A DNA stretch of 64,000 nt from an uncultured Acidobacteriota bacterium (lineage in GTDB: Bacteria > Acidobacteriota > Vicinamibacteria > Vicinamibacterales > CAVVIG01), in the NCBI GenBank assembly GCA_963821285.1, contig CAWGDD010000007.1:148436-212435 (forward strand), given 5' to 3'. The position numbers were made by a program, and so were the translations under genes. This document shows, piece after piece, positions 1 through 52,456 of this stretch; within the stretch, counting starts at the first letter, position 1; the number at the start of each line of letters is the position of its first letter. A model generated the notes under the pieces. That model ran no database searches. It was given only the letters and a program-made list of their open reading frames with translations, and was not told the origin of the DNA.

Positions 1-754
1 GCATCAGCACCGTGGCGCACGAGCTCTGGTACTCGCCCTGCACGACCATCAGGTCCTCGTGCGTGACGTTGATCTTGACTGCCGACTGCGGACTGTCGAC
101 TGCCGACTGCTGACTGCTGACTGCTGCCTGCCGACTCTCTTCCGCCTCCCTCGCGACCGCGTTGAGCAGCGTGGCGGCCGCGTCGAGATTCATCGTGTCG
201 CCGAACTCGTACGGCTTCGGCGCGCCGGTCGTTTCGACACCGGTCGCCTGTTCGCGCGTGTCGTGCCGCCCGTAGCTGCTTTTACCGAGCGAGCCCAGCA
301 GATCGCGAAGTGCCCGGTAGCCGAGAAAGTCGAGCGTCTTGTCGGTGACTTCGAACGTGACCGGCGGCTGATCGGGACCCTGCCCGCCGCCGCGGCCGCT
401 CCGGCGCTGCCGCTCGGGTTCGAGGTCCGGCGGCATGGTGATGTAGCCCTGCTCGCCCATCCGTTCGATGATCTGCTGGATGAGCTCCTCGAGCTTCGAA
501 CGCACGTCTTCCTGATCGCCATCCGCCGGGTCGCCCAGCAGCTGCTGGATCGTCTCTTCGGGCAGCACGCCGCCGTTGAACAACGCGTCGAGGATTGCGT
601 CGTGCAGCGCCTGCATCGTCCGCTCCTCTTCGTCACGCCCGTGCGGGTTGCCGAACCCGCTCGCGAGCAGCAGGTCGGACAGCTTCGACACCAGGTCCTC
701 GAGGTCGAGGTCCTCGAGCGGGTCGCCGGTGTACTTGGAGTAGCGATATTTCAT
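1..754 (-). CDS. Partner protein of the ChlI-like AAA+ ATPase (probable VWA-domain protein), N-terminal ~251 codons; 3' end lies beyond the window
   Basis: The frame is open from ATG (752-754, minus) to the window edge, so it is absent from the ORF track. Own translation: MKYRYSKYTGDPLEDLDLEDLVSKLSDLL...VTFEVTDKTLDFLGYRALRDLLGSLGKSSYGRHDT... It lies 45 nt downstream of the ATPase gene, as in ATPase/VWA pairs. The VWA domain itself is not inside the window. Confidence 0.5.
   Translation of the reverse strand, partial: MKYRYSKYTGDPLEDLDLEDLVSKLSDLLLASGFGNPHGRDEEERTMQALHDAILDALFNGGVLPEETIQQLLGDPADGDQEDVRSKLEELIQQIIERMGEQGYITMPPDLEPERQRRSGRGGGQGPDQPPVTFEVTDKTLDFLGYRALRDLLGSLGKSSYGRHDTREQATGVETTGAPKPYEFGDTMNLDAAATLLNAVAREAEESRQAAVSSQQSAVDSPQSAVKINVTHEDLMVVQGEYQSSCATVLM
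75..137. repeat. Imperfect heptanucleotide tandem repeat, consensus CCGACTG (plus strand), 9 units, in-frame inside the CDS
   Basis: Units read ttgactg ccgactg cggactg tcgactg ccgactg ctgactg ctgactg ctgcctg ccgactc. Translated on the minus strand as SRQAAVS SQQSAVD SPQSAVK. Same unit as at 23134-23287. Confidence 0.9.
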
Positions 755-764
755 GTGATTGCGT

Positions 765-803
765 GGGGACTGGAGGCTAGGGGCTGGAGTCCCCAGCCCC
801 TAG
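765..803. repeat. 13/14-nt GGGACT(G/A)GAGGCT-type repeat forming a hairpin (ctaggggctgg / ccagcccctag) across the ATPase stop codon
   Basis: Sequence ggggactggaggctaggggctggagtccccagcccctag has an 11-bp stem with a 5-nt loop. gggactggaggct differs at 1 base from the reverse complement of the two copies at 28198-28224. Confidence 0.7.
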
Positions 804-2293
804 TTGTAATACTTCTTCTTCCCCCCGGGGACCTGAAACCCTTCGTCCATCGGCGGTTCCTCGCGGCGCGCCGTGCGGCGGGGCTGAGGCTCGGTCGCCG
901 AGTAGCCGCGCTCGTCGCTGCGGCTGATCTTCTTCTGCGCGTAGAGGCCTTCCAGGACGAAGTCGATCGCGGACGCGATGGCGGGGGCGGTGGCGCCCGC
1001 GGCGACACCGGCCCGCTCCGCCAGCTCGCGGAGGCCCTGCACGCCGTGCGACTGCGTCACGACGTCGTCGGCCGATGATACGTCGCTGAGCGGCAGCGAT
1101 CCGCCGAGGTCGAACCACTCGACGACCGTTCGCGTGTCCTGGCCCTCGAACATGCCGGTGAATACCGCGCCGACCGCCGACCGGATCAGGTCGCGCGCGA
1201 CCTGCTCCGCACCGCGCAGTTCGCCCTCGTACTCGAGCTCGAACTTGCCGGTAATCGACGGGAGCGCCGCCGCGACGTCGGTCACGCGCGGCACGACGAC
1301 CGTCTCGCCGTTCGAGAGCGCCCGCCGTTCGGCGTTCGACACGACGAGCTCGAGCGTGGTGATGGGCAGACGCTGGCTGACACCCGACCGCTTGTCGATC
1401 TTGCGATCGGCGCGGGCCTGGAACGCCACCTCCTCGACCACCTCGCGGACGTAGCCGGGAATTTCGACGCGCAGGCCGCCGGTCCGCTCGGTCCACGCTT
1501 CCTGTCTGGTGATGGCCATCGCGTTGTGGCGCGTCGCCGGGTAGTGCGTGCGGATTTCAGACCCGATGCGGTCCTTGAGCGGCGTGATGATCTTGCCGCG
1601 CGCCGTGTAGTCCTCGGGGTTGGCCGTGAACACGAGCATCACGTCGAGTTTCAGGCGAATCGGGTAGCCTTTGATCTGGACGTCGCCTTCCTGCAGGATG
1701 TTGAACAGGCCGACCTGGATCTTGCCTGCCAGATCGGGCAGTTCGTTGATGGCGAAGATGCCCCGGTTCGCACGGGGGAGCAGGCCGTAGTGCATCGTGA
1801 GCTCGTCGGAGAGGTTCAGGCCGGCTTGCGCGGCCTTGATCGGATCGATGTCGCCGACCATGTCGGCGATCGTCACGTCCGGCGTCGCGAGCTTCTCCAC
1901 GTAGCGCGCCTCGCGGGGCAGCCAGGCGATGGGCATCGCGTCGCCTTCGCGGGCCACCCGCGCGCGGCACGCCGCGCAGAGCGGCGCCAGCGGGTCGTCG
2001 TGGATTTCGCACCCCGGTACCACCGGAATCTGTTCGTCCAGCAGATCGACCAGACCGCGCAGGATGCGGCTCTTGGCCTGGCCGCGCAGTCCCAGGAGGA
2101 TGAAGTTGTGCCGCGACAGGATCGCGTTGACGAGCTGAGGGATGACCGTGTCGTCGTAACCGATGATGCCGGGGAACAGCGTGTCGCCGTTCTGCAGCTT
2201 GCGCATGAGGTTGTCGCGGATTTCCTGCTTCACCGATCGCTTGGGCAGGCGCGCCTGTCGAAGCTCGCCGAGGGTCGCAATTGTGGCCGCCAT
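800..2293 (-). CDS. AAA+ ATPase, Mg-chelatase subunit I (ChlI/BchI)-like
   Basis: 497-aa ORF. Walker A-like GLRGQAKSR, Walker B region [11 protein letters not shown], and ChlI-like blocks [34 protein letters not shown]. Confidence 0.8.
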
Positions 2294-3218: not shown

Positions 3219-4188
3219 ATGCAGCCCCCGAGCCTTGACGATGTGCGCGCGGCGTGCGCGCGCGTCTACCCGTTCATCCAACCCACCCCGCTCATGCGGC
3301 ACCCGCTGCTTGAGGCCGAATCCGGGTTGGATCTGCTGGTCAAGCACGAGAACCACAACCCGACCGGCTCGTTCAAGGTCCGCGGCGGCCTGAACCTCGT
3401 CGGACAGCTCTCGCAGGACGAGCGCCGTCGCGGCGTCATCTCCGCGACGACGGGCAATCATGGCCAGTCGATCGCGCTGGCCTGCCAGCGCGAGGGAGTG
3501 ACCGTGCACGATCGTCACGCCCGTGGGCAACAACCCCGAAAAGAACGCCGCCATGCGGGCGTACGGAGCCGACGTCCTCGAGTACGGCCGCGACTTCGAC
3601 GAAGCCCGTGAGCGCGTCGAACAGCTGCAGGCCGAGCGCGGCCTGCGCTATGTGCACTCGGCGAATGAACCGTTGCTCATTGCGGGGGTGGGCACGCTGG
3701 CGCTCGAGTTGTTCGACGCACAGCCGGGTATCGACGTCGTCCTCGTGCCAATCGGCGGCGGGAGCAACGCCTGCGGCTGCTGCATTGTCCGCACGGGGCT
3801 TGGCAGCCGCGCGCAGATCATCGGCGTGCAGGCCGAGGGCTCCGACGCCTTTGCGCGATCGTGGCGCACGGGCTCACGCGTGGTGGGGGAGCGGGCTGCG
3901 ACGTTCGCCGAAGGCCTGGCCACGCGGGTCACCTTCGACCTGACGTTCGAGATCCTTCGGAAGGGACTCGACGACGTGGTGACGCTGACGGAGGCGGAAC
4001 TGGCCGATGGCGTGCGGCTTGCCCTGCGCACCACGCATAATCTGGCCGAAGGCGCCGGCGCCGCGCCGCTCGCCGCTGCGATGAAGCTGCGCGATCGGCT
4101 GGCCGGCCGGCGAGTCGCCTGCGTGATGAGCGGCGGCAACATTGACGCCGCCACGCTCCGCCGCGTGCTCGGAGATCACAACGGTTAA
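3219..4188 (+). pseudogene. PLP-dependent threonine/serine dehydratase, disrupted as assembled by a +1 frameshift near 3502
   Basis: Frame 1 reads ...HENHNPTGSFKVRGGLN...ATTGNHGQSIALACQREGVT. Frame 2 continues CTIVTPVGNNPEKNAAMRAYGADV...SGGNID. Removing one C from gaCCgtg restores REGVTCTIVTPVGNNPEK. Confidence 0.8.
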
Positions 4189-5018: not shown

Positions 5019-5738
5019 CTACCGAACCTCTGGAACTTCCGGAACCCCTGGAACCTCTAGAACCTCTCGAGCCTTCTTGAACACGTCGCCCAGCATGTCG
5101 GCCGTGAGCTTGCCCGTGTTCGTGTTCTGCCGGCTCGGGTGATAGCAGCCGAAGAGCATCTGTCCGTTCGGCAGGCGATGTCCGACGCCGTGACCGAACG
5201 TGGGACGGGGCTTCAGCACGACGCCGTTCCGCTTGAGCAGCTGCAGGTACGCGTCGAACGCAATCTTCCCGAGCGCGACCACGACCGAGACGCGCGGCAG
5301 CGCGGCGAGCTCCGCGCCGAGATGCGGAAGGCAGCGGGCGATTTCTTCCGGCGTCGGCTTGTTGTCGGGCGGCGCGCAGCGAACCGCCGCCGCGATGAAC
5401 GCATCGTGCAACGTGAGCCCATCGTCGGGGTGCTGCGACGTGCGGATGTTGGCGAAGCCCGCATCGCACAAGCCCGCCATCAGGAAATCGCCCGATCCGC
5501 CGACACCGTCGCCGGTGAACACGCGGCCCGTGCGGTTGGCGCCGTGCGCGGCCGGCGCCAGGCCAACGACGAGCAGCCGCGCGCGTGGATCGCCGAACCC
5601 CGGAACCGGCTTCGCCCAGTACGTGTCGTCGCGGAACGCGCGCCGTTTCTCGATCCCGATGCGCCGGCAGTACGCGCGCAGCCGCGGGCACAACTCGCAG
5701 GACACGATCGCCTCGGAGACATCGGTCAACGTCGTCAT
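5019..5738 (-). CDS. Uracil-DNA glycosylase superfamily protein, family 5 (UdgB)/family 4-like, Fe-S type
   Basis: CELCPRL..., GLAPAAHGANRTGRVFTGD, HPSRQN motifs. The C-terminal tail EVLEVPGVPEVPEVR is encoded by the 9-nt repeat. Confidence 0.75.
   Translation of the reverse strand: MTTLTDVSEAIVSCELCPRLRAYCRRIGIEKRRAFRDDTYWAKPVPGFGDPRARLLVVGLAPAAHGANRTGRVFTGDGVGGSGDFLMAGLCDAGFANIRTSQHPDDGLTLHDAFIAAAVRCAPPDNKPTPEEIARCLPHLGAELAALPRVSVVVALGKIAFDAYLQLLKRNGVVLKPRPTFGHGVGHRLPNGQMLFGCYHPSRQNTNTGKLTADMLGDVFKKAREVLEVPGVPEVPEVR
5022..5068. repeat. 9-nt tandem repeat (GGAACCTCT-like, ~5 units) forming the 3' end of the UDG gene
   Basis: ccgaacctc tggaacttc cggaacccc tggaacctc tagaacctc. Confidence 0.8.
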
Positions 5739-5916: not shown

Positions 5917-8593
5917 GTGCGACACATTTCCCCCAAAGACGCGGCCGATCTCGACGCGACCGAAACACGCGAATGGCTCGATTCCGTTGATTATGTCCTG
6001 CAGAGCGGCGGCCCCGCCAAGGTCGCCCGCCTGCTCCGCGAGCTGACCCAGTACGCCCGGCAGCACGGCGTCAAGCTTCCGTTCACCGCCAACACGCCCT
6101 ACGTCAACACGATTCCGGCCGACGAACAGGCGCTCATGCCGGGCAGCCCCGACGTCGAGCGCCGCATCAAGAGCCTCGTCCGCTGGAACGCCGCCGCGAT
6201 GGTCGTGCGCGCGAACAAGGCGTCGGAAGGAATCGGCGGCCACATCTCGACGTATGCCTCGGCCGCGACGCTGTACGAAGTCGGCTTCAACCACTTCTTC
6301 CGCGGACACGCCTCCGGCGACCCGGATGTGATCTTCTTTCAGGGCCACGCGGCGCCGGGCATCTACGCGCGCGCGTACCTCGAAGGGCGGCTCGACGAAA
6401 CACATCTCGTGAACTTCCGCCGCGAGCTCAAAGACGGCGGCGGCCTTTCGTCGTATCCGCATCCCTGGCTGATGCCCGACTTCTGGGACTATCCGAGCGT
6501 CTCGATGGGGCTGAGCCCCATCATGGCGATCTACCAGGCGCGCTTCATCCGCTACCTCGAGGATCGCGGGCTGAAGGCGAAGTCCGAGACCAAGGTGTGG
6601 GCGTTCCTGGGCGACGGCGAGACCGACGAGCCCGAGTCGCTCGGCGCCATCACGCTGCCCGCGCGCGAGAAGCTCGACAACCTCATCTTCGTCATCAACT
6701 GCAACCTCCAGCGCCTCGACGGCCCCGTTCGCGGCAACGGCCAGATCATCCAGGAACTCGAAGCCGCGTTCCGCGGCGCCGGATGGAACGTGATCAAGGT
6801 CCTCTGGGGACGCGAATGGGATGTGTTGCTCGCGAAGGATCGCGACGGCCTCCTCGTCAAGCGCATGGGCGACATCGTCGACGGCCAGTATCAGAAGTAC
6901 GCCGTCGAATCCGGCGCGTATCTACGCGAGCACTTCTGGGGCGTCGATCCGCGGCTGCTCGAGATGGTCAAGCACCTGAGCGACGACCAGCTCAAGAAGA
7001 TGACCCTCGGCGGCCACGATCCGGTGAAGGTGTACAACGCCTTCAAGGCTGCCGTGGAACACAAGGGCGCGCCGACCGTCATCCTCGCCCGGACCATCAA
7101 GGGCTACGGCCTCGGCGAAGCCGGTGAGGGCAAGAACATCACGCACCAGCAGAAGAAGCTGAACGAAGACGAGCTTCGCGCCTTTCGTACACGCTTCGGC
7201 GTGCCCATCTCCGACGCCGACATCGGCCACACCCCGTTCTACCGTCCCGCAGAAGACAGCATCGAAACCCGTTACATGCGCGAGCGCCGCACGGCGCTCG
7301 GCGGGTTCGTGCCCGCGCGCAAGGTCCGCAGCGAGGTCGTGCCGGTTCCGGCGCACGAACAGTTCGAGGAGTTCTTCAAGGGCACCGAAGGCCGCAAGGC
7401 CTCGACCACGATGGTGTTCGTGCGGTTGCTGAGCAAGCTCCTGCGCGACAAGGACATCGGCCGGTTGATCGTGCCGATCGTGCCGGACGAGGCGCGCACC
7501 TTCGGCATGGAGGCGCTGTTTCGAGCCGTCGGCATCTACTCCCACGCCGGGCAGGTGTACGAGCCCGTCGACATGGACACGCTCCTGTACTACAAGGAAG
7601 CCTCGGACGGGCAGATTCTCGAGGAAGGCATCAATGAAGCCGGCGCGATGTCGTCCTTCATTGCCGCGGGCACGGCGTACGCCACGCACGGCGTGAACAC
7701 GATTCCCTTCTTCATCTACTACTCGATGTTCGGCTTTCAGCGGATCGGCGACCTGATCTGGGCCGCCGCCGACTCGCGCACGCGAGGTTTCCTCCTCGGC
7801 GGGACCGCCGGGCGCACCACCCTGGCCGGCGAGGGTCTCCAGCACCAGGACGGCAACAGCCAGCTCTTCGCCCTCGCGTACCCGAATTGCCTGCCGTACG
7901 ACCCGGCGTATGCGTACGAGATGGCGGTCATCATCGAAGACGGCATCCGCCGGATGTACGTCGATCAGGAAAGCGTCTTCTACTACCTGACGGTGATGAA
8001 CGAGCAGTACCGAGATGCCGCCGATGCCGGACGGCGCGCGTGAGGGCATCCTGAAGGGGCTGTACCGCTTCCGCGCCACGTCCACGCCGAAGGCGACGCT
8101 CCGGGCGCAGCTCTTCGGCAGCGGTGCCATCCTGCCCGAAGTGGTCAAGGCGCAGGCCCTCCTCGAATCCGACTACGGCGTCGGCGCCGACGTGTGGAGC
8201 ATCACCAGCTTCGTGCAGCTGTACCGCGACGGCTTCACGGCCGACCGCTGGAATATGCTGCACCCGGGCGAGACGCCGCGCGTGCCGTACGTGACGCAAT
8301 GCGTGAAGGACGCGCCCGGCGTCTTCGTCGCCGCCTCGGACTACGTCAAGGCGCTGCCGCACGCGATCGATCGCTGGCTGCCGCGCCCGCTCGAGACGCT
8401 CGGCACGGACGGCTTCGGCCGCAGCGAGAGCCGCGAGAGCCTGCGAGACTTCTTCGAAGTCGATGCCCGCTACATCGTCGTCGCCACGCTTGGCGCGCTG
8501 GCCCGCGACGGACAGCTCGATGTCGCCGTTGTGCAGAAGGCCATCAAGAGCCTGGGCATCAACCCCGACAAACTGAATCCGGCGGTGTCGTAG
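5917..8593 (+). pseudogene. aceE: Pyruvate dehydrogenase E1 component (homodimeric AceE type), disrupted as assembled by a +1 frameshift at 8011-8014
   Basis: ORF 5917..8043 plus ORF 8015..8593. The junction NEQY|(c)|[18 protein letters not shown] resembles my recollection of AceE. Four bases (cgag) separate tac from atg. Confidence 0.9.
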
Positions 8594-21493: not shown

Positions 21494-22861
21494 TCAGTCG
21501 AGACGGTACTTGGCCAGATAGTACGACAGCGCGCGCTGGCTGATCCCCATCAGTTCCGCGGCATCCTTCTTCACGCCGCCCGCGCTCTCGATGGCCCGCC
21601 GGATGGTCTCGCGCTCGACCCACTCGATGTTCTGCCGGAGTTTCAGCGAGGGGAGAGTGGTTGCCTGCGGCGCCGCCGCGCCCAGCACCGAGACGGCGCG
21701 GGCGCCGATGACGTTTCCCGTCGAAAGCACGACGGCGCGTTCGATCGTGTTCTCGAGCTCGCGGACGTTGCCCGGCCAGTCGTACTGCTGCAGGCCGGCC
21801 ATCACGCTGTCTTCGGGGCGATCGATGCGGCGTCCGACGCGCTGCGCGTGTTTCCGGATGAAGTGCTCGACGAGCGACGGGATGTCGTCGCGCCGTTCCC
21901 GCAGCGGCGGGATTTCGATCGGGATCACGTTGAGGCGGTAGAAGAGGTCTTCCTGGAACTTGCCGTCGGCCACCATCTGTCGGAGATCGCGGTTGGTGGC
22001 GGCGATGACGCGCAGGTCGACCTTCTCGGTCCGCTCCGACCCGAGCGGCTCGAACTCGCGCTCCTGCAGGACGCGCAGGAGCTTGCTCTGCAGCGGCGGG
22101 CTCATGGTGCCGATTTCGTCGAGGAAGATCGTGCCGCCGTCGGCGAGCGCGAACTTGCCTTTCTTGGTGGTCGTCGCCCCGGTGAACGCGCCGCGCACGT
22201 GGCCGAAGAGCTCCGACTCGAGCAGCGTTTCGGGAATGGCGGCACAGTTGACCTTGATGAGCGGCATGTCGCGCTGGGCGCTGCGGTCGTGGATGGCGCG
22301 GGCCACCAGTTCCTTGCCGGTGCCCGTTTCGCCGGTGATGAGGACGGTGCTCTTCGTCTCGGCCACCAGCTCCGCGCGCCGGATCACTTCCTCCATGGCC
22401 CGGCTGCGCCCGATGATGCCGTAGTGGTCGAACTGCTCGTCGCGCTCGCTGAGCAGATAGCGGTGCTCCGTCCGAAGGCGCTGATGATCGAGCGCGCGCC
22501 GTACGACGACGATCAGCTCGTCGATCTCGAACGGTTTGATCAGGTAGTCGAGCGTCCCCAGCTTCATCGCTTCGATGGCGCTCTCGACGGTCGCGTGCGC
22601 CGTCATCATCAGGATCTGCGCGCGTTCGCCCTCCGGCGCCGACCCGATGTACTCGCGAATCAGGTCAAGCCCGCTCAGCTCGGGCATCATGTTGTCCACC
22701 ACGAGCAGGTCGAACGGGCGCTCGGCCAGCAGCCGCTGCGCCTGACGTGGGCTGGTCGTGTCCACGACGGCGTGGCCGGCCTCGCGCAGGGCGCGTCCGA
22801 GCGACTTCAGGATCTTCTCTTCGTCATCAACGATCAGGATCGAGCCGCGGCCGTGGGTCAT
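21494..22861 (-). CDS. Sigma-54-dependent response regulator (NtrC family: REC + AAA+ + HTH)
   Basis: ILIVDDE...DLLVVDNMMP receiver, GETGTGKE Walker A, GAFTGA loop (HVRGAFTGA), C-terminal HTH AAELMGISQRALSYYLAKY. Confidence 0.9.
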   Translation of the reverse strand: MTHGRGSILIVDDEEKILKSLGRALREAGHAVVDTTSPRQAQRLLAERPFDLLVVDNMMPELSGLDLIREYIGSAPEGERAQILMMTAHATVESAIEAMKLGTLDYLIKPFEIDELIVVVRRALDHQRLRTEHRYLLSERDEQFDHYGIIGRSRAMEEVIRRAELVAETKSTVLITGETGTGKELVARAIHDRSAQRDMPLIKVNCAAIPETLLESELFGHVRGAFTGATTTKKGKFALADGGTIFLDEIGTMSPPLQSKLLRVLQEREFEPLGSERTEKVDLRVIAATNRDLRQMVADGKFQEDLFYRLNVIPIEIPPLRERRDDIPSLVEHFIRKHAQRVGRRIDRPEDSVMAGLQQYDWPGNVRELENTIERAVVLSTGNVIGARAVSVLGAAAPQATTLPSLKLRQNIEWVERETIRRAIESAGGVKKDAAELMGISQRALSYYLAKYRLD

Positions 22862-22865
22862 GGGG

Positions 22866-24774
22866 TTATCCGGAGACGCCTGCGGGGAGGCTGATGCGGA
22901 TCTCGGTGCCCGTACCGGGTGCGCTGTTCACGCCGATCGTGCCGCCGAGCCCTTCGACGATGTTCTTGGCGATGGCCAGCCCCAGGCCCGTGCCGCTGCG
23001 CTTCGTCGTGAAGTAGGGCTCGAACACCTGGGGCAGGTGAGCCGGGTCGATGCCCGCGCCGCGGTCGGCGATGACGATCGTGACGCGGCCATCCTTCGCC
23101 AGCGTGCTCAGCGTCACAAGCGGCTCGTTGGTCGTGGCTGGTGGCTCGTGGCTCGTGACGGCTGACTGCCGACTGCCGACGGCTGACTGCCGACTGTCGA
23201 CTGCCGACTGCGGACTGCCGACTGCCGGCTGCTGACTGCCGACTGCCGGCTGCTGACTGCCGACTGCCGACTGCTGACTGTCGACGGCATGGCGCGCGTT
23301 GACGAGCATGTTCACGAGTGCAATCCGCAGCCGTTCGGCGTCCGTCGTGACGGGCGCGGCGCCCGGGTCGAGTTCCAGGTGCACGGCGGCACCCGGCCCC
23401 GAGGCCACAGACGCCGCTGCCGACTCGCGGCAGAGCACGTTCAGATCCGCCGGCGCGAGTTCGAAGCGGATGGGCCGCGCGAAGTCGAGGACCTCGTTCA
23501 CGATCCGGTTCAGCCGCTCGACCTCCTCGTCGATGTCGGCCACCGCCTCGCGCATGGCCGCCCGGCTCACGTCCGGCTGGCGCAGCGCGTGCAGCGATCC
23601 CTTGATGATCATCAGCGGGTTCCGCACTTCGTGGGCGATGACGGTGGACAGACGGCCGAGCGACGACAGCCGTTCCTTCTGCGACATCTCGCGCTGGAAG
23701 CGCGCGATCGAGTCCGTCAGGGTGTTGAACGTCGTGGCCAGCAGCTGGGCGTCCTCGTCGTGCCAGCGGCGGCCCTCGCCGACGGCGATCTTGCGCGTCA
23801 GATCGCCGGTGGCGGCCACCTCGCGCATGACGTCGGTGATTGCCGCCAGCGGCCTCGTGATCGTGCGGGCGACCGCGAAGCTGAGGAGCGTCGCGAGCAG
23901 CACGGCGACGATGGCGGTGACGGCGAGACCCGTGTGGATGGCGTCGAGCGAGCGGAGTTGCTCGGTGCGCGATCGCAGGATCAGCGGCCACCGGCGCTGC
24001 GCGGCTCCCGGGCTGCGCCGATCCGAGCGCCAGGGCCAGCGCGACGTACTCGTCGGAGCCGAGCGTCACCGTGGAGACCCCCGAGCCGTGGAGTCGGGCC
24101 GCCAGCGCGTGGTCGTACTCGCGCGGCAGGGTCGTCGTCAGCACATTGGCGCCCACTGCGAAGGCGATGTCGCTGCCGGTAATCGCCTTGAGCTGGCTGG
24201 CCAGTGCGTCGTTGAGGAGGAAGCCCACGCTGACCGACCCTAGAATCTGCGGCTGCGTGAGCCCGATGACGATCGGCACCGTCACCACCTGCAGGATGCC
24301 GTCCGGCTCGGGGAGCAGGTCCACGGTTTCGTGTCCGAGCAGCGCGTCCCGCACGGCGGGCCAGTCGCCCGCGACGAGACCGGCCGGGGCCGAGTCTCCC
24401 AGCGCCGCGAGCACGCGGCCCGTCCCGTTCGTCACGACCAGCAGGTTGGCGGATTTCAGGGGCTCCTGATAGTCGCGGAGGTTGTCTTCGACCGTGGGCG
24501 GATCGTTCGTGAGGACGGCGGCCTTGAGCTTGGGCAGGTCGGCGATGAGCCGGGCCATCACGGTGTAGGTGTCGATGCGGGTCTTGCGAAGCTGGTCGAC
24601 GAGCGCACCGGTGGCGCGGATCTCGCGCTGCAGGGCACTCTCGGCCTCGCGCGTGACCCGCTGGTTGACGACGTAGATCGCGGCGACGATCGAGAGCACC
24701 GCGAGCAGCGCGCTCGCCAGGAAGATTCGTCCCCGGAGGGAGCTGACGAGCGTTGCCCGAAGAACCGCGTTCAT
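22866..24774 (-). pseudogene. Sensor histidine kinase (periplasmic sensor, HAMP, HisKA, HATPase_c), disrupted as assembled by a +1 frameshift near 23990-24012
   Basis: N-terminal frame MNAVLRATLVSSLRGRIFLASALLAVLSIVAAIYVV...LALALGSAQPG. The C-terminal frame continues (QRRWPLILRSRTEQLRSLDAIHTGLAVTAIVAV)LLATLLSFAVARTITRPL...STVIAHEVRNPL...DRGAGI...GTGLGLAI. Confidence 0.85.
23134..23287. repeat. Heptanucleotide tandem repeat, consensus CCGACTG, 22 units (17 core units 23162-23280), in-frame inside the kinase ATP-binding domain
   Basis: Counted units: gtggctg gtggctc gtggctc gtgacgg ctgactg ccgactg ccgacgg ... ctgactg tcgacgg. Translated as SQQSAVG SQQPAVG SQQPAVG SPQSAVD SRQSAVG SRQSAVT between the N box (NMLVNARHAV) and the G1 box (DRGAGI). 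Confidence 0.9.
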
Positions 24775-25234: not shown

Positions 25235-25502
25235 CTGCGAGCCCTGCGTGGGCACCAAGGATACGGCCTGCGTGGATGTGTGTCCCGTGGACTGCATCCA
25301 CCCGCGCAAGGACGAGGCCAGCTTCGCGGCGGCCGAGATGCTCTATATTCACCCGGACGAGTGCATCGATTGCGGCGCCTGCGTCCCGGCGTGCCCGGTC
25401 GAGGCCATCTTCTCGCTCGACGAGACGCCGCACAAGTGGGCGGGCTTTATTGACAAGAACGCCTCATACTATGATATGATCGTGGTTGAGGTTAGAGGTT
25501 AG
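25221..25502 (+). CDS. Ferredoxin (FdxA-like, 3Fe-4S/4Fe-4S type)
   Basis: [26 protein letters not shown]...[20 protein letters not shown]. The tail is encoded by a gaggtta duplication. Confidence 0.85.
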
Positions 25503-25522
25503 GGGTCCGGTGGACTATCCGA

Positions 25523-35417: not shown

Positions 35418-36080
35418 CTACCAACTCGCCAGGCTCCCTTGCGGCAGCTCGGTCCACCGGTCACGGCCGCGGTACCACAGCGGCTTGCGGCCCGGATACG
35501 CCTTCTTGAACGCCCGATAGTTCGCGCGCAGCCGGTTCGCCCGCGCATCCGACGTGACGATCCGGCGGTGCGGGTAGTCGAGCAGCATGCGTTCGACCTT
35601 CCACACGTTCGTCTCCGCCAGTCTCCAGTCGTACGTGCCCATCTCGCGCGCCACATCGACGACCGCATAGCCCGTCACGCGTCCCGTGAGATCGATGTAC
35701 GGATCGCAATAGCTCCGCGCGAGCGCGCCCGGTGTGGCGAAGACCGGCTTGCGCCCGTGGAGACCCGGATCGCGCGACCGCGCGACGGATCCCCATCGTC
35801 CGCGCTGCTGGTAGACGAAGATGACGTGATCCAGGTGGTCGATCGACTCGAAGCTCAGGAGGAGCGGGGGATAGCCGTTCTGTTCGAGGGCGACCGTCGC
35901 AAACAGCGCCGCCTCGAGGCAATGCGCGCAGCCGTGTTGGAGCACGCCCCTGAAACTGCGCAGTGTCGCGCGCCCTCCCGGCTCGTTGTTGTACGGCAGC
36001 CGGTTTAGATAGTGCTGAACGGCACTGGGCGTGCGGAGCCGCGCGAGCAAGCCGCGCTCTGCACGCGTGAATCTAGTCAT
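35418..36080 (-). CDS. Hypothetical protein (weak papain/transglutaminase-like Cys...His pattern)
   Basis: 220 aa; GCAHCLEAALF ... HLDHVIFVY. The family assignment is only a guess. Confidence 0.35.
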   Translation of the reverse strand: MTRFTRAERGLLARLRTPSAVQHYLNRLPYNNEPGGRATLRSFRGVLQHGCAHCLEAALFATVALEQNGYPPLLLSFESIDHLDHVIFVYQQRGRWGSVARSRDPGLHGRKPVFATPGALARSYCDPYIDLTGRVTGYAVVDVAREMGTYDWRLAETNVWKVERMLLDYPHRRIVTSDARANRLRANYRAFKKAYPGRKPLWYRGRDRWTELPQGSLASW

Positions 36081-36149
36081 CTGGTCATTTAGTCATCTGG
36101 TCATTTCTGTCATCGGAAATGACCAAGTGACCAGATGACTAGATGACTA
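36074..36149. repeat. AT-richer inverted array: tagtcatctggtcatt x2 facing aatgaccagatgacta-like copies (hairpin)
   Basis: Direct copies at 36074-36089 and 36090-36105. The complementary arm is 36117-36149. The left arm holds the start codon of 35418..36080 and the right arm encodes the last 13 codons of 36110..37036. Confidence 0.8.
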
Positions 36150-46616: not shown

Positions 46617-47557
46617 TTAACGCGGTGGCAGTGATAACACCCGAACGTGAAGTGTGATCGGTTGAACGCGTACGGCTGCGTGAAATCGTAGGCGGGCCGC
46701 CCGAGCAGCTGCGCCATCCCGGGCATGATGACCTCGCGCATGTAAGCGGCGCGCGAGGCCCGGTCCGATTCGGCGCCGTACCCGTAGATCGCGTTGCGCA
46801 TCTGGTCGTCCATCGTGCCGCCGTAGTTTTCCCATCCGGCGAGGCGCACCGCGGGCCTCGGCAGCGCCGCGACCGCCGGCATGTGCCAGCCGGCGTCCCC
46901 GGCGTCCGCGCCGTGGCACGTGTGGCACGTCACGAGGTCAGGCGCGCCCACGATGGGCGCCAGCGCCTGGCGCGCCCACGGCATCACGCGCTGCTCCATG
47001 AACCGCACGATCTCGTCGTGGTCCCTCTTCCGCCCGCCCGGATAGATCGCATCGTCGGCGGGGTAGCTGATCGGCGCGCTGGTGCCATGGACGCCGGTGA
47101 CGACGCCGAACGCGATGGCGGCCGTGGAAATGACGGCGGCGATACCGGTGAGCGATGCGCGTGCGCCCGGAGTCCGGATCCTCGGCTCCCAGGTCATCAC
47201 GGCGAGCGCGGCCCCGACGGCTCGCGGGTTGGCTCGCGCGACGGGATCGGTGGCCAGCAGTTCGATCAGCGCCGCGAGTTGTGGCGCACGCCTGACGCCG
47301 CGAATGACGAGCGTCCGGGCGCGATCACGATGGCGGACTTCGAGGGTCGAGACGCCGAGGATACGCTCGAGCGGCGTCTGACTCCGGGCGACCTCGCCGA
47401 TGTCGCAGGTCGCCAGCTCGTCGACGCCGGTCCTGGAGATGCGCACCAGGCGCATGTCCGTGAGCACGTAGCGATCACGGCGGAGGTGAAGCCACGGCAA
47501 GAGGGGCGTGGGGCGGGCGTTCCACAGCAGCCGCTCCCACGGCAGCGGGACGGTCAC
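46613..47557 (-). CDS. Bacterial PH-domain + TM helix + periplasmic di-haem c-type cytochrome-like domain
   Basis: YVLTDMRLVRISRTGVDELATCDIGEV...STLEV (bPH-like). TM LTGIAAVISTAAIAFGVVTGV. CHTCH and CYHCH haem motifs. Confidence 0.55.
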   Translation of the reverse strand: MTVPLPWERLLWNARPTPLLPWLHLRRDRYVLTDMRLVRISRTGVDELATCDIGEVARSQTPLERILGVSTLEVRHRDRARTLVIRGVRRAPQLAALIELLATDPVARANPRAVGAALAVMTWEPRIRTPGARASLTGIAAVISTAAIAFGVVTGVHGTSAPISYPADDAIYPGGRKRDHDEIVRFMEQRVMPWARQALAPIVGAPDLVTCHTCHGADAGDAGWHMPAVAALPRPAVRLAGWENYGGTMDDQMRNAIYGYGAESDRASRAAYMREVIMPGMAQLLGRPAYDFTQPYAFNRSHFTFGCYHCHRVK

Positions 47558-47561
47558 ATGT

Positions 47562-48141
47562 CTACGAGGCGGGCTTCCCGAAGTTCACCTTCGGCACCTG
47601 TTTCGCTTCGGGGGGCGCCGCGAAGAACGGATATTCCTTGAACCCGAACAGCTTCGCGGTGATATTCGACGGGAACTGGCGCTTCGCCGTTTGATACTCC
47701 TGAACGCGCTCGTTGTAGCGCATCCGCTCGACGGCGATGCGGTTCTCGGTGCCCGACAGCTCGTCCATCAGCCCGTTGAACTGCTCGTTGGCCTTGAGGT
47801 TCGGATAGTTTTCGACGATGACGAGCAGGCGGCCGAGCGCGCTCGACTGCTGGTTGGCCGCGGTGATGGTTTCCTCGGGCGACTTCGCGCCCGAGCAGCC
47901 GCGAGCGCGACTCGGCGATCTCCTTGAAGACGCCTTCCTCGTGGGACGCGTAGCCCTTCACGGTTTCGACCAGGTTCGGGATCAGATCGTTGCGCCGCTG
48001 GAGCTGGTTCTCGACCTGGGCCCACTGCGCTTTGATCGCTTCCTCCTGGCTGACGAACTTGTTGTACGAGCAGCCGGACACCGAGAACGCGACGAACCCG
48101 AGCAGGAAGATCTGTGCGGCAAATCGACGTGTGGTCTTCAT
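47562..48141 (-). pseudogene. lemA: LemA-family protein, disrupted as assembled by a +1 frameshift near 47889
   Basis: Lipobox VSGC. QWAQVENQLQRRNDLIPNLVETVKGYASHEEGVFKEIAESRSRLLG | AKSPEETITAANQQSSALGRLLVIVENYPNLKANEQFNGLMDELSGTENRIAVERMRYN. Confidence 0.85.
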
Positions 48142-48162
48142 GGTTTCAGTTTACAACCTCCC

Positions 48163-49009
48163 TCACCAGCTTGAACCGCCTCCGCCTCCGCCGCTTCCCC
48201 CTCCGCCGAAGCCGCCGAAGCCCCCGCCCCCGCCGCCGAAGCCCCCGAACCCGCCGCCGAAGCCCCCGCCGCCGCGGCGTCCGCCGCCGAAGGACCCCAC
48301 GCCGCTCGACCATCCGCTCCACGGACCCAGGGCCCAGAACGGAAAGCCTCCGCCCCCGCCGCCGCGGCCGATGCGGCTGATGATGAGGATGGCGATGAAG
48401 ATGAGAATCGGCAGGAGCGGCCAGATCGACCCGCCGCCTGGCTGAGCTGTCGCGCTCGCGGGCCACGCCTTCCAGCCGGACCTGCCGGCCGTCGGCAATC
48501 CGGTTGACGATGCGCGAGGTGCCCGCGACGAGGCCGAGGCCATACGAGCCGTTCCGGAATTGCGGCACCATGTACTGGCGGCTCGTTTCGCCGGCGAATC
48601 GATCCGTGATCCAGGGCTCGAGCCCGTACCCGACCTCTACCCAGACTTTCCGCTCCTTGATCGCGAGGAGAATCAGCAGCCCGTTGTCCTTCTCCTTATC
48701 GCCGATGCCCCGGCCGTGGTTCTCGAACATCTTCACGGCGTATTCGCGGATGTCGCCGTAGCCTTCGATGGTCGGGACGGTCGCGACGACGACGATGTCG
48801 CCGCTCGCGGCCTTCAGTGCGCGGCTGAGCTGATCGATCTGCGCGGCGCTTCTGGCGTCGATGACGTGCGCGAAGTCGTTCACGGGCGCGACGAGCTCCG
48901 GCGGCGCGTCGGTGGCATGGAGCGTCGCGTAGAGCAACGAGCAGAGGGCAAAGGGCACAGCGAAACGCACGGCGAGACGCGGCCCGCGGCGGCTCATCGC
49001 GTCTTCCAC
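48163..49009 (-). pseudogene. TPM-domain (YgcG-like) protein with TM and Gly-rich tail, disrupted as assembled by a +1 frameshift near 48445
   Basis: VNDFAHVIDARSAAQIDQLSRALKAASGDIVVVATVPT...LLILLAIKERKVWVEVGYGLE... | QPGGGSIWPLLPILIFIAILIISRIGRGGGGGGF...GGGGSGGGGGGSSW. The start may be Met at 48997. Confidence 0.8.
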
Positions 49010-52362: not shown

Positions 52363-52380
52363 GGGCGGATCTTAAAATCT

Positions 52381-52456
52381 GGTCATTGGTCATCGGTCAT
52401 TCTGTCATCTCCCTTGGCAATTGCACAACGAGACAGATGCAAATGACAGGACCAAT
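52381..52456. repeat. Heptamer array ggtcatt ggtcatc ggtcatt ctgtcat facing a complementary arm (hairpin), downstream of the POT transporter gene
   Basis: Left arm 52381-52411, right arm gagacagatgcaaatgacaggaccaat 52430-52456. Shares GGTCATT(T)CTGTCATC with 36098-36114. Confidence 0.75.

Follow-up and report, generated by a model that had tools for sequence, protein, structure and literature searches.

A degenerate heptanucleotide repeat within the ATP-binding domain of a sigma-54 two-component sensor kinase from an Acidobacteriota bacterium

Genes and repeat arrays at the locus

The window, i.e., the whole 64,000 nt stretch of DNA that was analysed, comes from an uncultured Acidobacteriota bacterium of the Vicinamibacterales and carries on its minus strand a sensor histidine kinase gene that is read in two parts. 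The N-terminal sensor part (positions 23988..24774, three-frame translation) has TM1 and a dCache_3 hit, and the C-terminal open reading frame (22866..23903) has TM2 and the Pfam domains HAMP, HisKA and HATPase_c. The gene directly downstream, also on the minus strand (21494..22861), encodes an NtrC-type sigma-54-dependent response regulator with Pfam Response_reg, Sigma54_activat, AAA_lid_14 and HTH_8 domains. Residues H91, N198/N202, D280-G282-G284, F294 and G304-G306-G308 are invariant in the kinase alignment. With its H, N, G1, F and G2 boxes and the adjacent regulator, the protein is a HisKA/HATPase_c kinase of a sigma-54 two-component system, and the Sigma54_activat domain of the regulator bears out the setting given in the original prediction.

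The two kinase parts lie in different frames as a result of one extra C at 23986/23987. The extra base is found only in the window; the alignment includes L200, L120 and L125 over the full span and L201 from a contig end just past the site. The repeat described below was considered as the cause of the split and rejected, since the break is this single base, about 700 nt upstream of the array. Similar breaks are present elsewhere in the window in NuoB, a LemA-like gene and a TPM-domain gene. The single-base frameshifts in these three genes and in the kinase gene are treated here as assembly errors.

The main heptamer array, at 23157..23285 on the minus strand, consists of CAGTCNN units, about 18 in number and imperfect, among which CAGTCGG and CAGTCAG predominate on the coding strand. 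It was delimited by TRF, by a print of the 7-nt register and by 21-mer matches. TRF reports 17.4 copies of GACTGCC at 23164-23285, with 83% matches and a score of 174. Next on the coding strand is an adjoining array of about 5 GAGCCAC/ACGAGCC-type units (23122..23157, minus strand; TRF GGCTCGT, 5.1 copies), and a coding-strand print places both arrays in phase, in one common 7-nt register. The earlier count of 22 units with a core of 17 thus describes the repeat fairly. A 21-mer of three units has 22 matches in the window with at most 3 mismatches, against 0.00 expected from dinucleotide-preserving shuffles; all 22 are on the plus strand and confined to the kinase array and to a second array in a VWA gene. 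The GAGCCAC-type array has 3 matches against 0.02 expected. The kinase array is, far beyond chance, a tandem run of 7-nt units, i.e., a heptanucleotide simple sequence repeat (SSR). The longest tract with perfect 7-nt periodicity is 20 nt. Exact tandem duplications of 21 nt (3 units) are present in the main array, and identity at lag 21 (0.73) is at least equal to that at lag 7 (0.69).

The peptide at the kinase array is DSQQSAVGSQQPAVGSQQPAVGSPQSAVDSRQSAVGSRQSAVTSHEPPATT, which bears out the predicted (S-x-Q-S/P-A-V-G)n reading; the main array is translated as (QSAVGSR)-type heptads. The GAGCCAC-type array is translated as TSHEPPATT; orthologs display a SHEPRAT heptad, and heptads of this type are common to kinase and VWA orthologs. 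Three-frame translation shows that, with a unit length coprime with 3, all three sense frames across the array are open and encode permutations of one heptad, as had been proposed. Past the array, one alternative frame is closed by a stop after no more than about 10 codons, and the other stays open for about 90 codons, to 22858; a change in unit number other than a multiple of 3 would frameshift G1, F and G2, and that part of the original prediction holds. The coding-strand RNA folds into a long imperfect hairpin (MFE -73.7 kcal/mol, z = -4.05 versus shuffles), and both DNA strands of the array can form slipped hairpins (z about -5). An Rfam scan of 22700-23700 gave no match.

Pfam and alignment positions agree with the placement proposed for the repeat, inside HATPase_c between the N box (LVNARHAV) and the strand before G1 (DRGAGI), in the last third of the gene. 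The N box precedes the insert and G1, F and G2 come after it, all in one frame; the Pfam HATPase_c match picks up again only past the insert, at profile position 27. In an AF2 model, residues ~208-262 have pLDDT values of 41-47 and the flanking blocks values of at least 90. The insert is modelled without secondary structure, except that the N-box helix continues briefly into it, as far as about residue 215. It was expected to lie in a loop close to the ATP lid, but the model places it between the N-box helix and the beta-hairpin preceding G1, with the lid elsewhere (~293-305). The insert is predicted from this model to be a disordered linker of about 50 residues, rich in S, Q, A, V, G and R, in a permissive surface loop.

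The second CAGTCNN array (77..136, minus strand, 8.6 units) was identified by TRF, translation and alignment of ortholog protein and DNA sequences, and is translated as ESRQAAVSSQQSAVDSPQSAV; the nine units claimed at 75-137 are real. It occupies a hypervariable linker just before the VWA domain of a VWA_2/Rv0959_3rd-domain gene, the 5′ part of which lies at 1..754 on the minus strand and runs past the window start. The full protein (P0121, 437 aa) is 100% identical over the part inside the window. Upstream of the VWA gene is an open reading frame for an AAA+ ATPase partner (800..2293, minus strand) with weak Sigma54_activat and AAA_5 hits, and this gene pair is conserved in L202 and L204. Both arrays of the window are thus within minus-strand genes.

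Variation and distribution of the arrays

The copy number of the kinase array varies among relatives. Over 2181 nt, L120 and L121 show 5 mismatches and a single 21-nt gap, which lies in the array, and the window differs from its closest relative, L201 (95% nt identity), by one 21-nt indel and point changes in the array. Length variation among relatives had been anticipated and was found, but none of the alleles seen departs from the reading frame. Across 80/80 orthologous metagenome loci (the best 80 of 231), the N-box side is in frame with the G1 side, and in 82/82 loci, about 18 of them with arrays, the length of the loop is divisible by 3; no out-of-frame allele was seen among these best-scoring loci, which are consensus contigs in which frameshifted alleles are possibly under-sampled. 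Minority out-of-frame subpopulations may be compatible with such consensus sequences. A strict multiple-of-21 rule for genic arrays was also considered and is rejected, as length differences of 12, 21 or 54 nt are seen among loops of 123-222 nt; only a multiple-of-3 rule holds for the genic loop lengths. The only frame-disturbed kinase locus, L200 (P0005), has a scrambled N box. It is discounted as an OFF allele because its contig is error-rich, with many truncated genes and single-base indels.

Loop length among the kinase orthologs ranges from 5 to about 60 residues. Many have a minimal loop of 5-7 residues and many are without any array, and in distant orthologs a lag-7 signal was not found in the loop. 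Unit variants and copy number are not kept between orthologs, and the arrays of L128-L133 are worn down by point mutation. Two kinase clades, on the other hand, have retained an array at the same loop or expanded it anew. With a net length that is a multiple of 3, intact domain halves, a predicted lack of structure and a length-variable site, the kinase insert is an in-frame low-complexity loop insertion. The linker before the VWA domain is hypervariable across 120/120 orthologs; CAGTCNN arrays are found at the same site in L202 and L204 and in decayed form in L203, and the site is kept across orthologs of 81-94% identity.

The CAGTCNN unit recurs at independent loci, two of them in the window, and in related genomes, including their intergenic regions. 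Intergenic copies in other Acidobacteriota lie directly past stop codons or ahead of start codons. One locus, L005, has an intergenic run of 12 CAGTCGG units, and L045 has four intergenic arrays in 8 kb. At L160 a CAGTC-type unit is present in both orientations, and the array supplies the start codon of a response regulator. A protein search with the heptad peptide gave 33 short open reading frames of 52-111 aa, which are probably spurious calls across intergenic arrays.

Contigs were also scanned with the pattern GACTGNN x4 + GACTG, permissive at the last two positions of the unit, which returned at least 119 loci. Most of those listed are arrays of Bacteroidota or of the cyanobacterial STRR type, and none of them showed similarity to the window; it should be noted that this cross-phylum sample is biased, as the pattern itself required GACTG. 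Housekeeping enzymes of other phyla also carry in-frame CAGTCNN arrays: these split PGK, a class-I aminoacyl-tRNA synthetase, UbiD and a cytochrome c, and in an M16 peptidase an array is N-terminal. Each of them is read in the same sense orientation. PGK and class-I aminoacyl-tRNA synthetases are normally indispensable, so the arrays within them argue against switching.

Interpretation of the kinase array

The kinase array is probably a degenerate heptanucleotide SSR, with a CAGTCGG unit and a GAGCCAC subfamily, that belongs to a lineage-wide family of Vicinamibacterales-type Acidobacteriota and is a tolerated in-frame passenger in a permissive loop. The evidence favours what the original prediction had given as its alternative, a genome-wide microsatellite tolerated in surface loops. 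Changes in length would arise through replication slippage or unequal recombination, possibly helped by a quasi-palindromic unit able to form slipped hairpins. Purifying selection would discard all changes not divisible by 3 nt, so that the array would now behave as a 21-nt minisatellite. In genes only the sense orientation would survive, because it is without stop codons and encodes a flexible hydrophilic peptide. The insert itself would be a passenger, neutral or close to it, that plays no part in regulating the two-component system.

The reading first put forward was a phase-variable contingency locus, in which slippage by one or two units would frameshift G1, F and G2. The sigma-54 two-component system would thereby be turned off in a reversible manner, and the sensor would perhaps be left as a phosphatase only. 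Such an on/off switch is very unlikely. Its architecture is present: a 7-nt unit coprime with 3 in some 18 + 5 units within the HATPase_c reading frame, open sense frames, downstream alternative frames that destroy the ATP-binding boxes, copy number that is polymorphic between close relatives, and slipped hairpins on both DNA strands. However, the frame is kept in 80/80 and 82/82 loci (consensus contigs; the best 80 of 231), the changes between close relatives are exact 21-nt steps, and the sole frame-disturbed locus sits in an error-rich contig. The array also lies in the last third of the gene, its tract is interrupted where known contingency loci are uninterrupted, and equivalent arrays are found in PGK and a class-I aminoacyl-tRNA synthetase. 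A linker under selection is also unlikely, if less so. The heptads would here form a functional insert (e.g., for spacing, solubility or partner interaction) that is varied in 7-residue steps as an adaptive "tuning knob" of kinase output. The minimal loops of many orthologs imply that the insert is dispensable; moreover, its residues are predicted to be disordered, the same peptide occurs in unrelated enzymes, the unit is also found untranslated in intergenic DNA, and arrays decay by point mutation in L128-L133 and L203. What speaks for such a linker is the single strand orientation used in genes, the length polymorphism of the near-identical strains L120 and L121, and the persistence of the sites: retention or re-expansion of the array in two kinase clades and at the VWA site could reflect a selected linker function as well as mere tolerance.

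A role at the level of DNA or RNA, with translation incidental, should also be considered; the repeat would then act as a protein-binding array, a translation-slowing mRNA hairpin or a recombination hotspot. The stable coding-strand RNA hairpin and the related arrays at gene boundaries, among them that with the start codon at L160, are consistent with such an element, and for TAACTGA heptamers a part in regulation has been suggested (PMC4679880). It is nevertheless highly improbable here, given an array that is absent from many orthologs, unit variants and copy numbers that are not conserved where it is present, and the Rfam result. A broader and improbable reading is that CAGTC-core heptamers do not just arise passively by slippage but are a propagating family, driven by a sequence-specific process that favours the quasi-palindromic unit. 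In Acidobacteriota, Bacteroidota, Cyanobacteria and Planctomycetota alike, this family would seed new arrays both at gene boundaries and within protein loops. It would repeatedly make disordered linkers of 7-residue periodicity, even in essential enzymes, and could at low frequency give rise to frameshifted sensor variants that are kinase-dead (phosphatase-only).

If the kinase array is a tolerated passenger, then the architecture of a contingency locus, a 7-nt unit within a gene, need not mean a switch, and no new regulatory mechanism is revealed for the sigma-54 two-component system. Heptamer microsatellites would be a genome-wide mutational feature of these soil bacteria. The few genic copies, held in frame by selection, would have become 21-nt minisatellites through which disordered heptad linkers are added to permissive loops. 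Such arrays would amount to a small natural experiment on insertion-tolerant protein loops. For annotation, heptamer arrays spawn spurious small open reading frames and invite false calls of phase variation.

Comparison with known systems

Literature searches gave no match for the unit CAGTCGG or for a Vicinamibacterales host. The nearest general class is that of the long heptanucleotide SSRs (Mrazek, Guo and Shah 2007), which are alike in their head-to-tail 7-nt units, of a length well above that given by chance, and in the presence of one unit at many loci of a genome. In the parts of PMC4679880 and PMC4692102 that cite this work (Mrazek et al. 2007), heptanucleotides are the most over-represented class of long SSR in numerous bacterial genomes, above all those that are large and high in GC; they are there typical of free-living bacteria and mostly intergenic, near gene ends, and SSRs whose unit length is not divisible by 3 are reported to be under-represented in open reading frames. 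Their intergenic location, tens of bases from start or stop codons, is shared by the arrays of L005, L045, L157 and L160, but the two window arrays differ from this account of the class in being within coding sequence and translated.

Genome-wide heptamer families are also formed by the TAACTGA heptamers of Beggiatoaceae, Cyanobacteria and Bacteroidetes and by the cyanobacterial STRR heptamers (PMC4679880), and many STRR-type arrays of Cyanobacteria were recovered in the GACTGNN scan. These too have one stop-free orientation and are occasionally translated as heptads (PMC4679880), LSVISYQ as compared with QSAVGSR in the window. They differ in unit and in phylum, and their heptads are mostly at the periphery or termini of proteins, whereas the kinase array is internal to a conserved HATPase_c domain.

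A phase-variable sensor kinase has a precedent in the poly-C frameshift of Bordetella bvgS. Slipped-strand phase-variable genes, such as the tetranucleotide contingency loci of Haemophilus (PMC2651432), resemble the kinase gene in that they carry, inside the gene, a repeat whose unit length is not divisible by 3 and whose slippage would shift the reading frame. Their tracts are uninterrupted and mostly located close to the 5′ end, and out-of-frame alleles do occur among natural isolates; the kinase array, in contrast, is degenerate, lies towards the 3′ end, and is in frame in every allele seen. Apart from the insert, the kinase resembles ZraS/NtrB-class kinases with NtrC-type partners in its HisKA and HATPase_c domains with N, G1, F and G2 boxes and in its sigma-54 activator partner. 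In its best solved relative, ZraS (PDB 9jfj), the corresponding N-box-to-G1 loop has about 10 residues, as against about 60 in the window kinase.

Heptamer arrays in the kinase and VWA genes

The window has a G+C content of 67%, and the names of its homologs put it among Vicinamibacterales-type Acidobacteriota. TRF reports a GACTGCC array at 23164-23285 (17.4 copies, 83% matches, score 174), a GGCTCGT array at 23122-23157 (5.1 copies) and a second GACTGCC array at 77-136 (8.6 copies). When printed in a 7-nt register, the minus (coding) strand of the sensor histidine kinase gene displays about 18 CAGTCNN units, with CAGTCGG and CAGTCAG dominant, continued in unbroken register by about 5 units of the GAGCCAC type. 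Thus the original prediction of 22 units, 17 of them core units, holds. Perfect 7-nt periodicity extends over no more than 20 nt; exact tandem 21-nt duplications are present, and identity at lag 21 (0.73) is at least equal to that at lag 7 (0.69). Probing with three units, and allowing up to 3 mismatches, gave 22 matches in the window (0.00 expected from shuffles), confined to the kinase and VWA arrays and on the plus strand only, and no further CAGTCGG arrays were found in the 64 kb.

The kinase ORF (22866..23903, minus strand) has profile matches to HAMP, HisKA and HATPase_c, the last of which picks up again only past the insert, at profile position 27. The array comes after the N box (ERLRIALVNMLVNARHAV) and is followed, in the same frame, by the beta-hairpin and the G1 (DRGAG), F and G2 (GTGLGL) boxes; it lies between the N and G1 boxes of HATPase_c, as proposed. 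The insert peptide is DSQQSAVGSQQPAVGSQQPAVGSPQSAVDSRQSAVGSRQSAVTSHEPPATT. All three sense frames are free of stops across the array and each gives a permuted heptad, also as predicted; past the array one alternative frame stops in about 10 codons and the other continues to 22858. The antisense frames have a stop at each CAGTCAG unit. Downstream of the kinase is a gene for an NtrC-type sigma-54 activator (21494..22861), in agreement with the proposed sigma-54 type of two-component partner.

The best solved relative of the kinase is ZraS (9jfj, E = 6.7e-31), whose N-box-to-G1 loop has about 10 residues, compared with about 60 here. In an AlphaFold2 model built on 55 homologs, the catalytic-core blocks flanking the insert have pLDDT of at least 90, and residues ~208-262 have pLDDT 41-47, with no secondary structure except where the N-box helix continues briefly, as far as about residue 215. 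The F and G2 boxes enclose the ATP lid (~293-305), a separate segment of the model. From the low pLDDT and the position of the lid, the insert is predicted to bulge out, disordered, where a loop joins the N-box helix to the pre-G1 hairpin. It does not belong to the ATP lid, near which the original prediction had considered placing it.

The second array falls within the linker immediately upstream of the VWA_2 domain, in a gene that continues beyond the window start; the complete protein (P0121) has 437 aa. Recurrence of the unit in this gene had been noted as nine copies at 75-137. The linker is hypervariable in all 120 orthologs, several of which carry the two kinase-type heptads. At the DNA level, CAGTCNN arrays are found at the matching site in contigs L202 (72 nt) and L204 (81 nt), and a decaying array of 69 nt in L203.

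With G-U pairs counted, 6 of the 7 positions pair when the sense unit GGCAGUC is set against itself, the remaining one being an A.A mismatch; thus the array can fold into a long imperfect hairpin. The RNA of 23120-23300, minus strand, has an MFE of -73.7 kcal/mol (z = -4.05), and the sense RNA and both DNA strands of the array fold better than shuffles, with z from -4 to -5. No Rfam families matched the kinase repeat region. The folding is consistent with slipped-hairpin intermediates, which the array may form.

Length and reading frame among kinase orthologs

Among the top 120 protein homologs the loop ranges from essentially zero to about 45 extra residues, and many bear heptads of the QSAVGSR or SHEPRAT type. 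Orthologous loci were taken from a metagenome scan as the best-scoring 80 of 231. The N-box and G1 sides share a frame in all 80, and with the window and its relative L201 added, the loop length is divisible by 3 in 82 of 82. Period-7 arrays are present in about 18 of these loci, with lineage-specific unit variants (CAGTCGG, CAGTCGA, CAGTCAG, CAGTCAT and CAGTCTC, among others). The N-box-to-G1 segment is 123-222 nt in relatives sharing 79% identity or more. Copy number does vary among relatives, as anticipated: over 2181 nt, contigs L120 and L121 show 5 mismatches and a single 21-nt gap, i.e., one copy of a 3-unit module. L201, at 95% nt identity to the window, is likewise separated from it by one 21-nt indel, with point changes within the array. 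On a neighbor-joining tree of kinase loci, arrays are split between two separate clades, between which lie decayed remnants (L128-L133) and short-loop lineages; this pattern would mean that arrays either expanded more than once at the loop or were there from early on and were then lost.

The only frame-disturbed kinase locus is that of L200 (protein P0005), where a G is added ahead of the N box and two single bases are deleted from the array; its contig has many other truncated genes. In the window itself, at least four conserved genes are split by single-base frameshifts. The dCache_3 sensor half of the kinase is out of frame with the catalytic half by a single additional C at 23986/23987. 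None of the four aligned relatives has this base, which lies ~700 nt upstream of the repeat and is unrelated to it. The nuoB gene is frameshifted at about 25745, NuoB being intact in syntenic L200, and frames are broken in a LemA-like gene (47554-48141) and a TPM-domain protein gene (48146-49009 / 48163-48543). These breaks suggest indel errors of assembly, probably long-read, rather than pseudogenes. Because the window assembly is indel-prone, the frame argument rests on the independent metagenome contigs; these are consensus sequences, behind which low-frequency frameshift variants may lie. Nested 15/21/30-nt GC-rich repeats (GCCGCCGAAGCCCCC...) at 48176-48292 are translated from the minus strand as the Gly/Phe-rich tail of this TPM-domain protein, which looks like an ordinary low-complexity tail.

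Heptamer arrays at other loci

Among the matches listed, CAGTCGG forms non-coding arrays at gene boundaries in other Acidobacteriota. In L005, a gene for an FtsX/MacB-type permease (named by eye from its C-terminal motif) has 12 units in a run that begins directly past its stop codon. An Acidobacteriota MAG contig, L045, has four apparently intergenic CAGTCGG-type arrays in 8 kb, on both strands (1011-1088, 5063-5125, 5589-5656 and 6925-6971), so that arrays are locally far denser there than in the window. One is just upstream of a DinB-like start and one directly past an HtrA/PDZ-like stop (both named by eye from translation); at the other two, long ORFs in any frame do not look like real genes. 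In L160, one of the kinase ortholog loci, the kinase-loop unit CAGTCAT returns inverted, as a GACTGAT array (3973-4013, x5.9) that fills the gap between kinase stop and regulator start, its last units supplying the regulator's ATG. Other heptamers also directly follow stop codons: AGGGCTT (L157), TGAGATC (L129) and, in the window, GGTTAGA, 3.4 units of which (25484-25506) lie exactly between the ferredoxin stop codon and the nuoB start. A TGGTCAT x3 array (52380-52401) is between genes as far as ORFs show. It is related to the tandem 8-mers (TAGTCATC/TGGTCATT) that, with their inverted complement, form a long, apparently intergenic hairpin at 36071-36147.

Among the same matches, in-frame CAGTCNN arrays also break into housekeeping enzymes of other phyla. 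In each case the orientation is sense, as in the kinase, and the reading is SxQSxVx. They are found in PGK of a Chitinophagaceae MAG (L031 1097-1186, 12.9 units, peptide (SAVGSQQ)n), class-I aminoacyl-tRNA synthetases of a Saprospiraceae MAG (L107 1456-1507) and a cyanobacterium (L086 1038-1074, identified by eye from translation), UbiD of a Bacteroidota MAG (L108 2989-3021) and cytochrome c of Terriglobales (L020 3481-3516). A protein search with the heptad peptide matched short unnamed ORFs only, as would be expected of false gene calls across intergenic arrays that lack stops.

Origin of the arrays and known repeat systems

The observations agree with a mutable simple-sequence repeat on which a frame filter acts. 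Such arrays would arise and change length, with any length allowed in non-coding DNA. Within genes, an array would persist only if it sits in a loop that tolerates insertion, is oriented so as to lack stops and adds a net length divisible by 3; later changes there would then appear as 21-nt steps. The original prediction had offered a microsatellite tolerated in loops as its alternative, and the in-frame loop arrays together with the intergenic copies support it. The reading it had favored, a slipped-strand on/off switch for the kinase, is not supported, because the alleles found are in frame (80/80), the tract is degenerate, the array comes late in the gene, in its final third, and equivalent arrays are carried by PGK and a class-I aminoacyl-tRNA synthetase, enzymes that cells cannot normally do without. 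The linker may still have a modest functional role.

According to two reports (PMC4679880, PMC4692102, both citing Mrazek et al. 2007), in many bacteria no class of long SSR is more over-represented than the heptanucleotides, especially in free-living species with large, high-GC genomes; they cluster in intergenic DNA ~50 bp or less from gene ends. The same reports (PMC4679880, PMC4692102) state that units that are not multiples of 3 are under-represented in ORFs, and that TAACTGA repeats are occasionally translated to heptad peptides in their stop-free orientation. The kinase array joins these known SSRs; its unit and host lineage appear to be new and its site inside a catalytic domain is unusual, but it reveals no new mechanism. 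The poly-C tract of bvgS is a known phase-variable regulator, with which the kinase array has only frameshift potential in common. The same single feature is shared with the Haemophilus contingency loci (PMC2651432).
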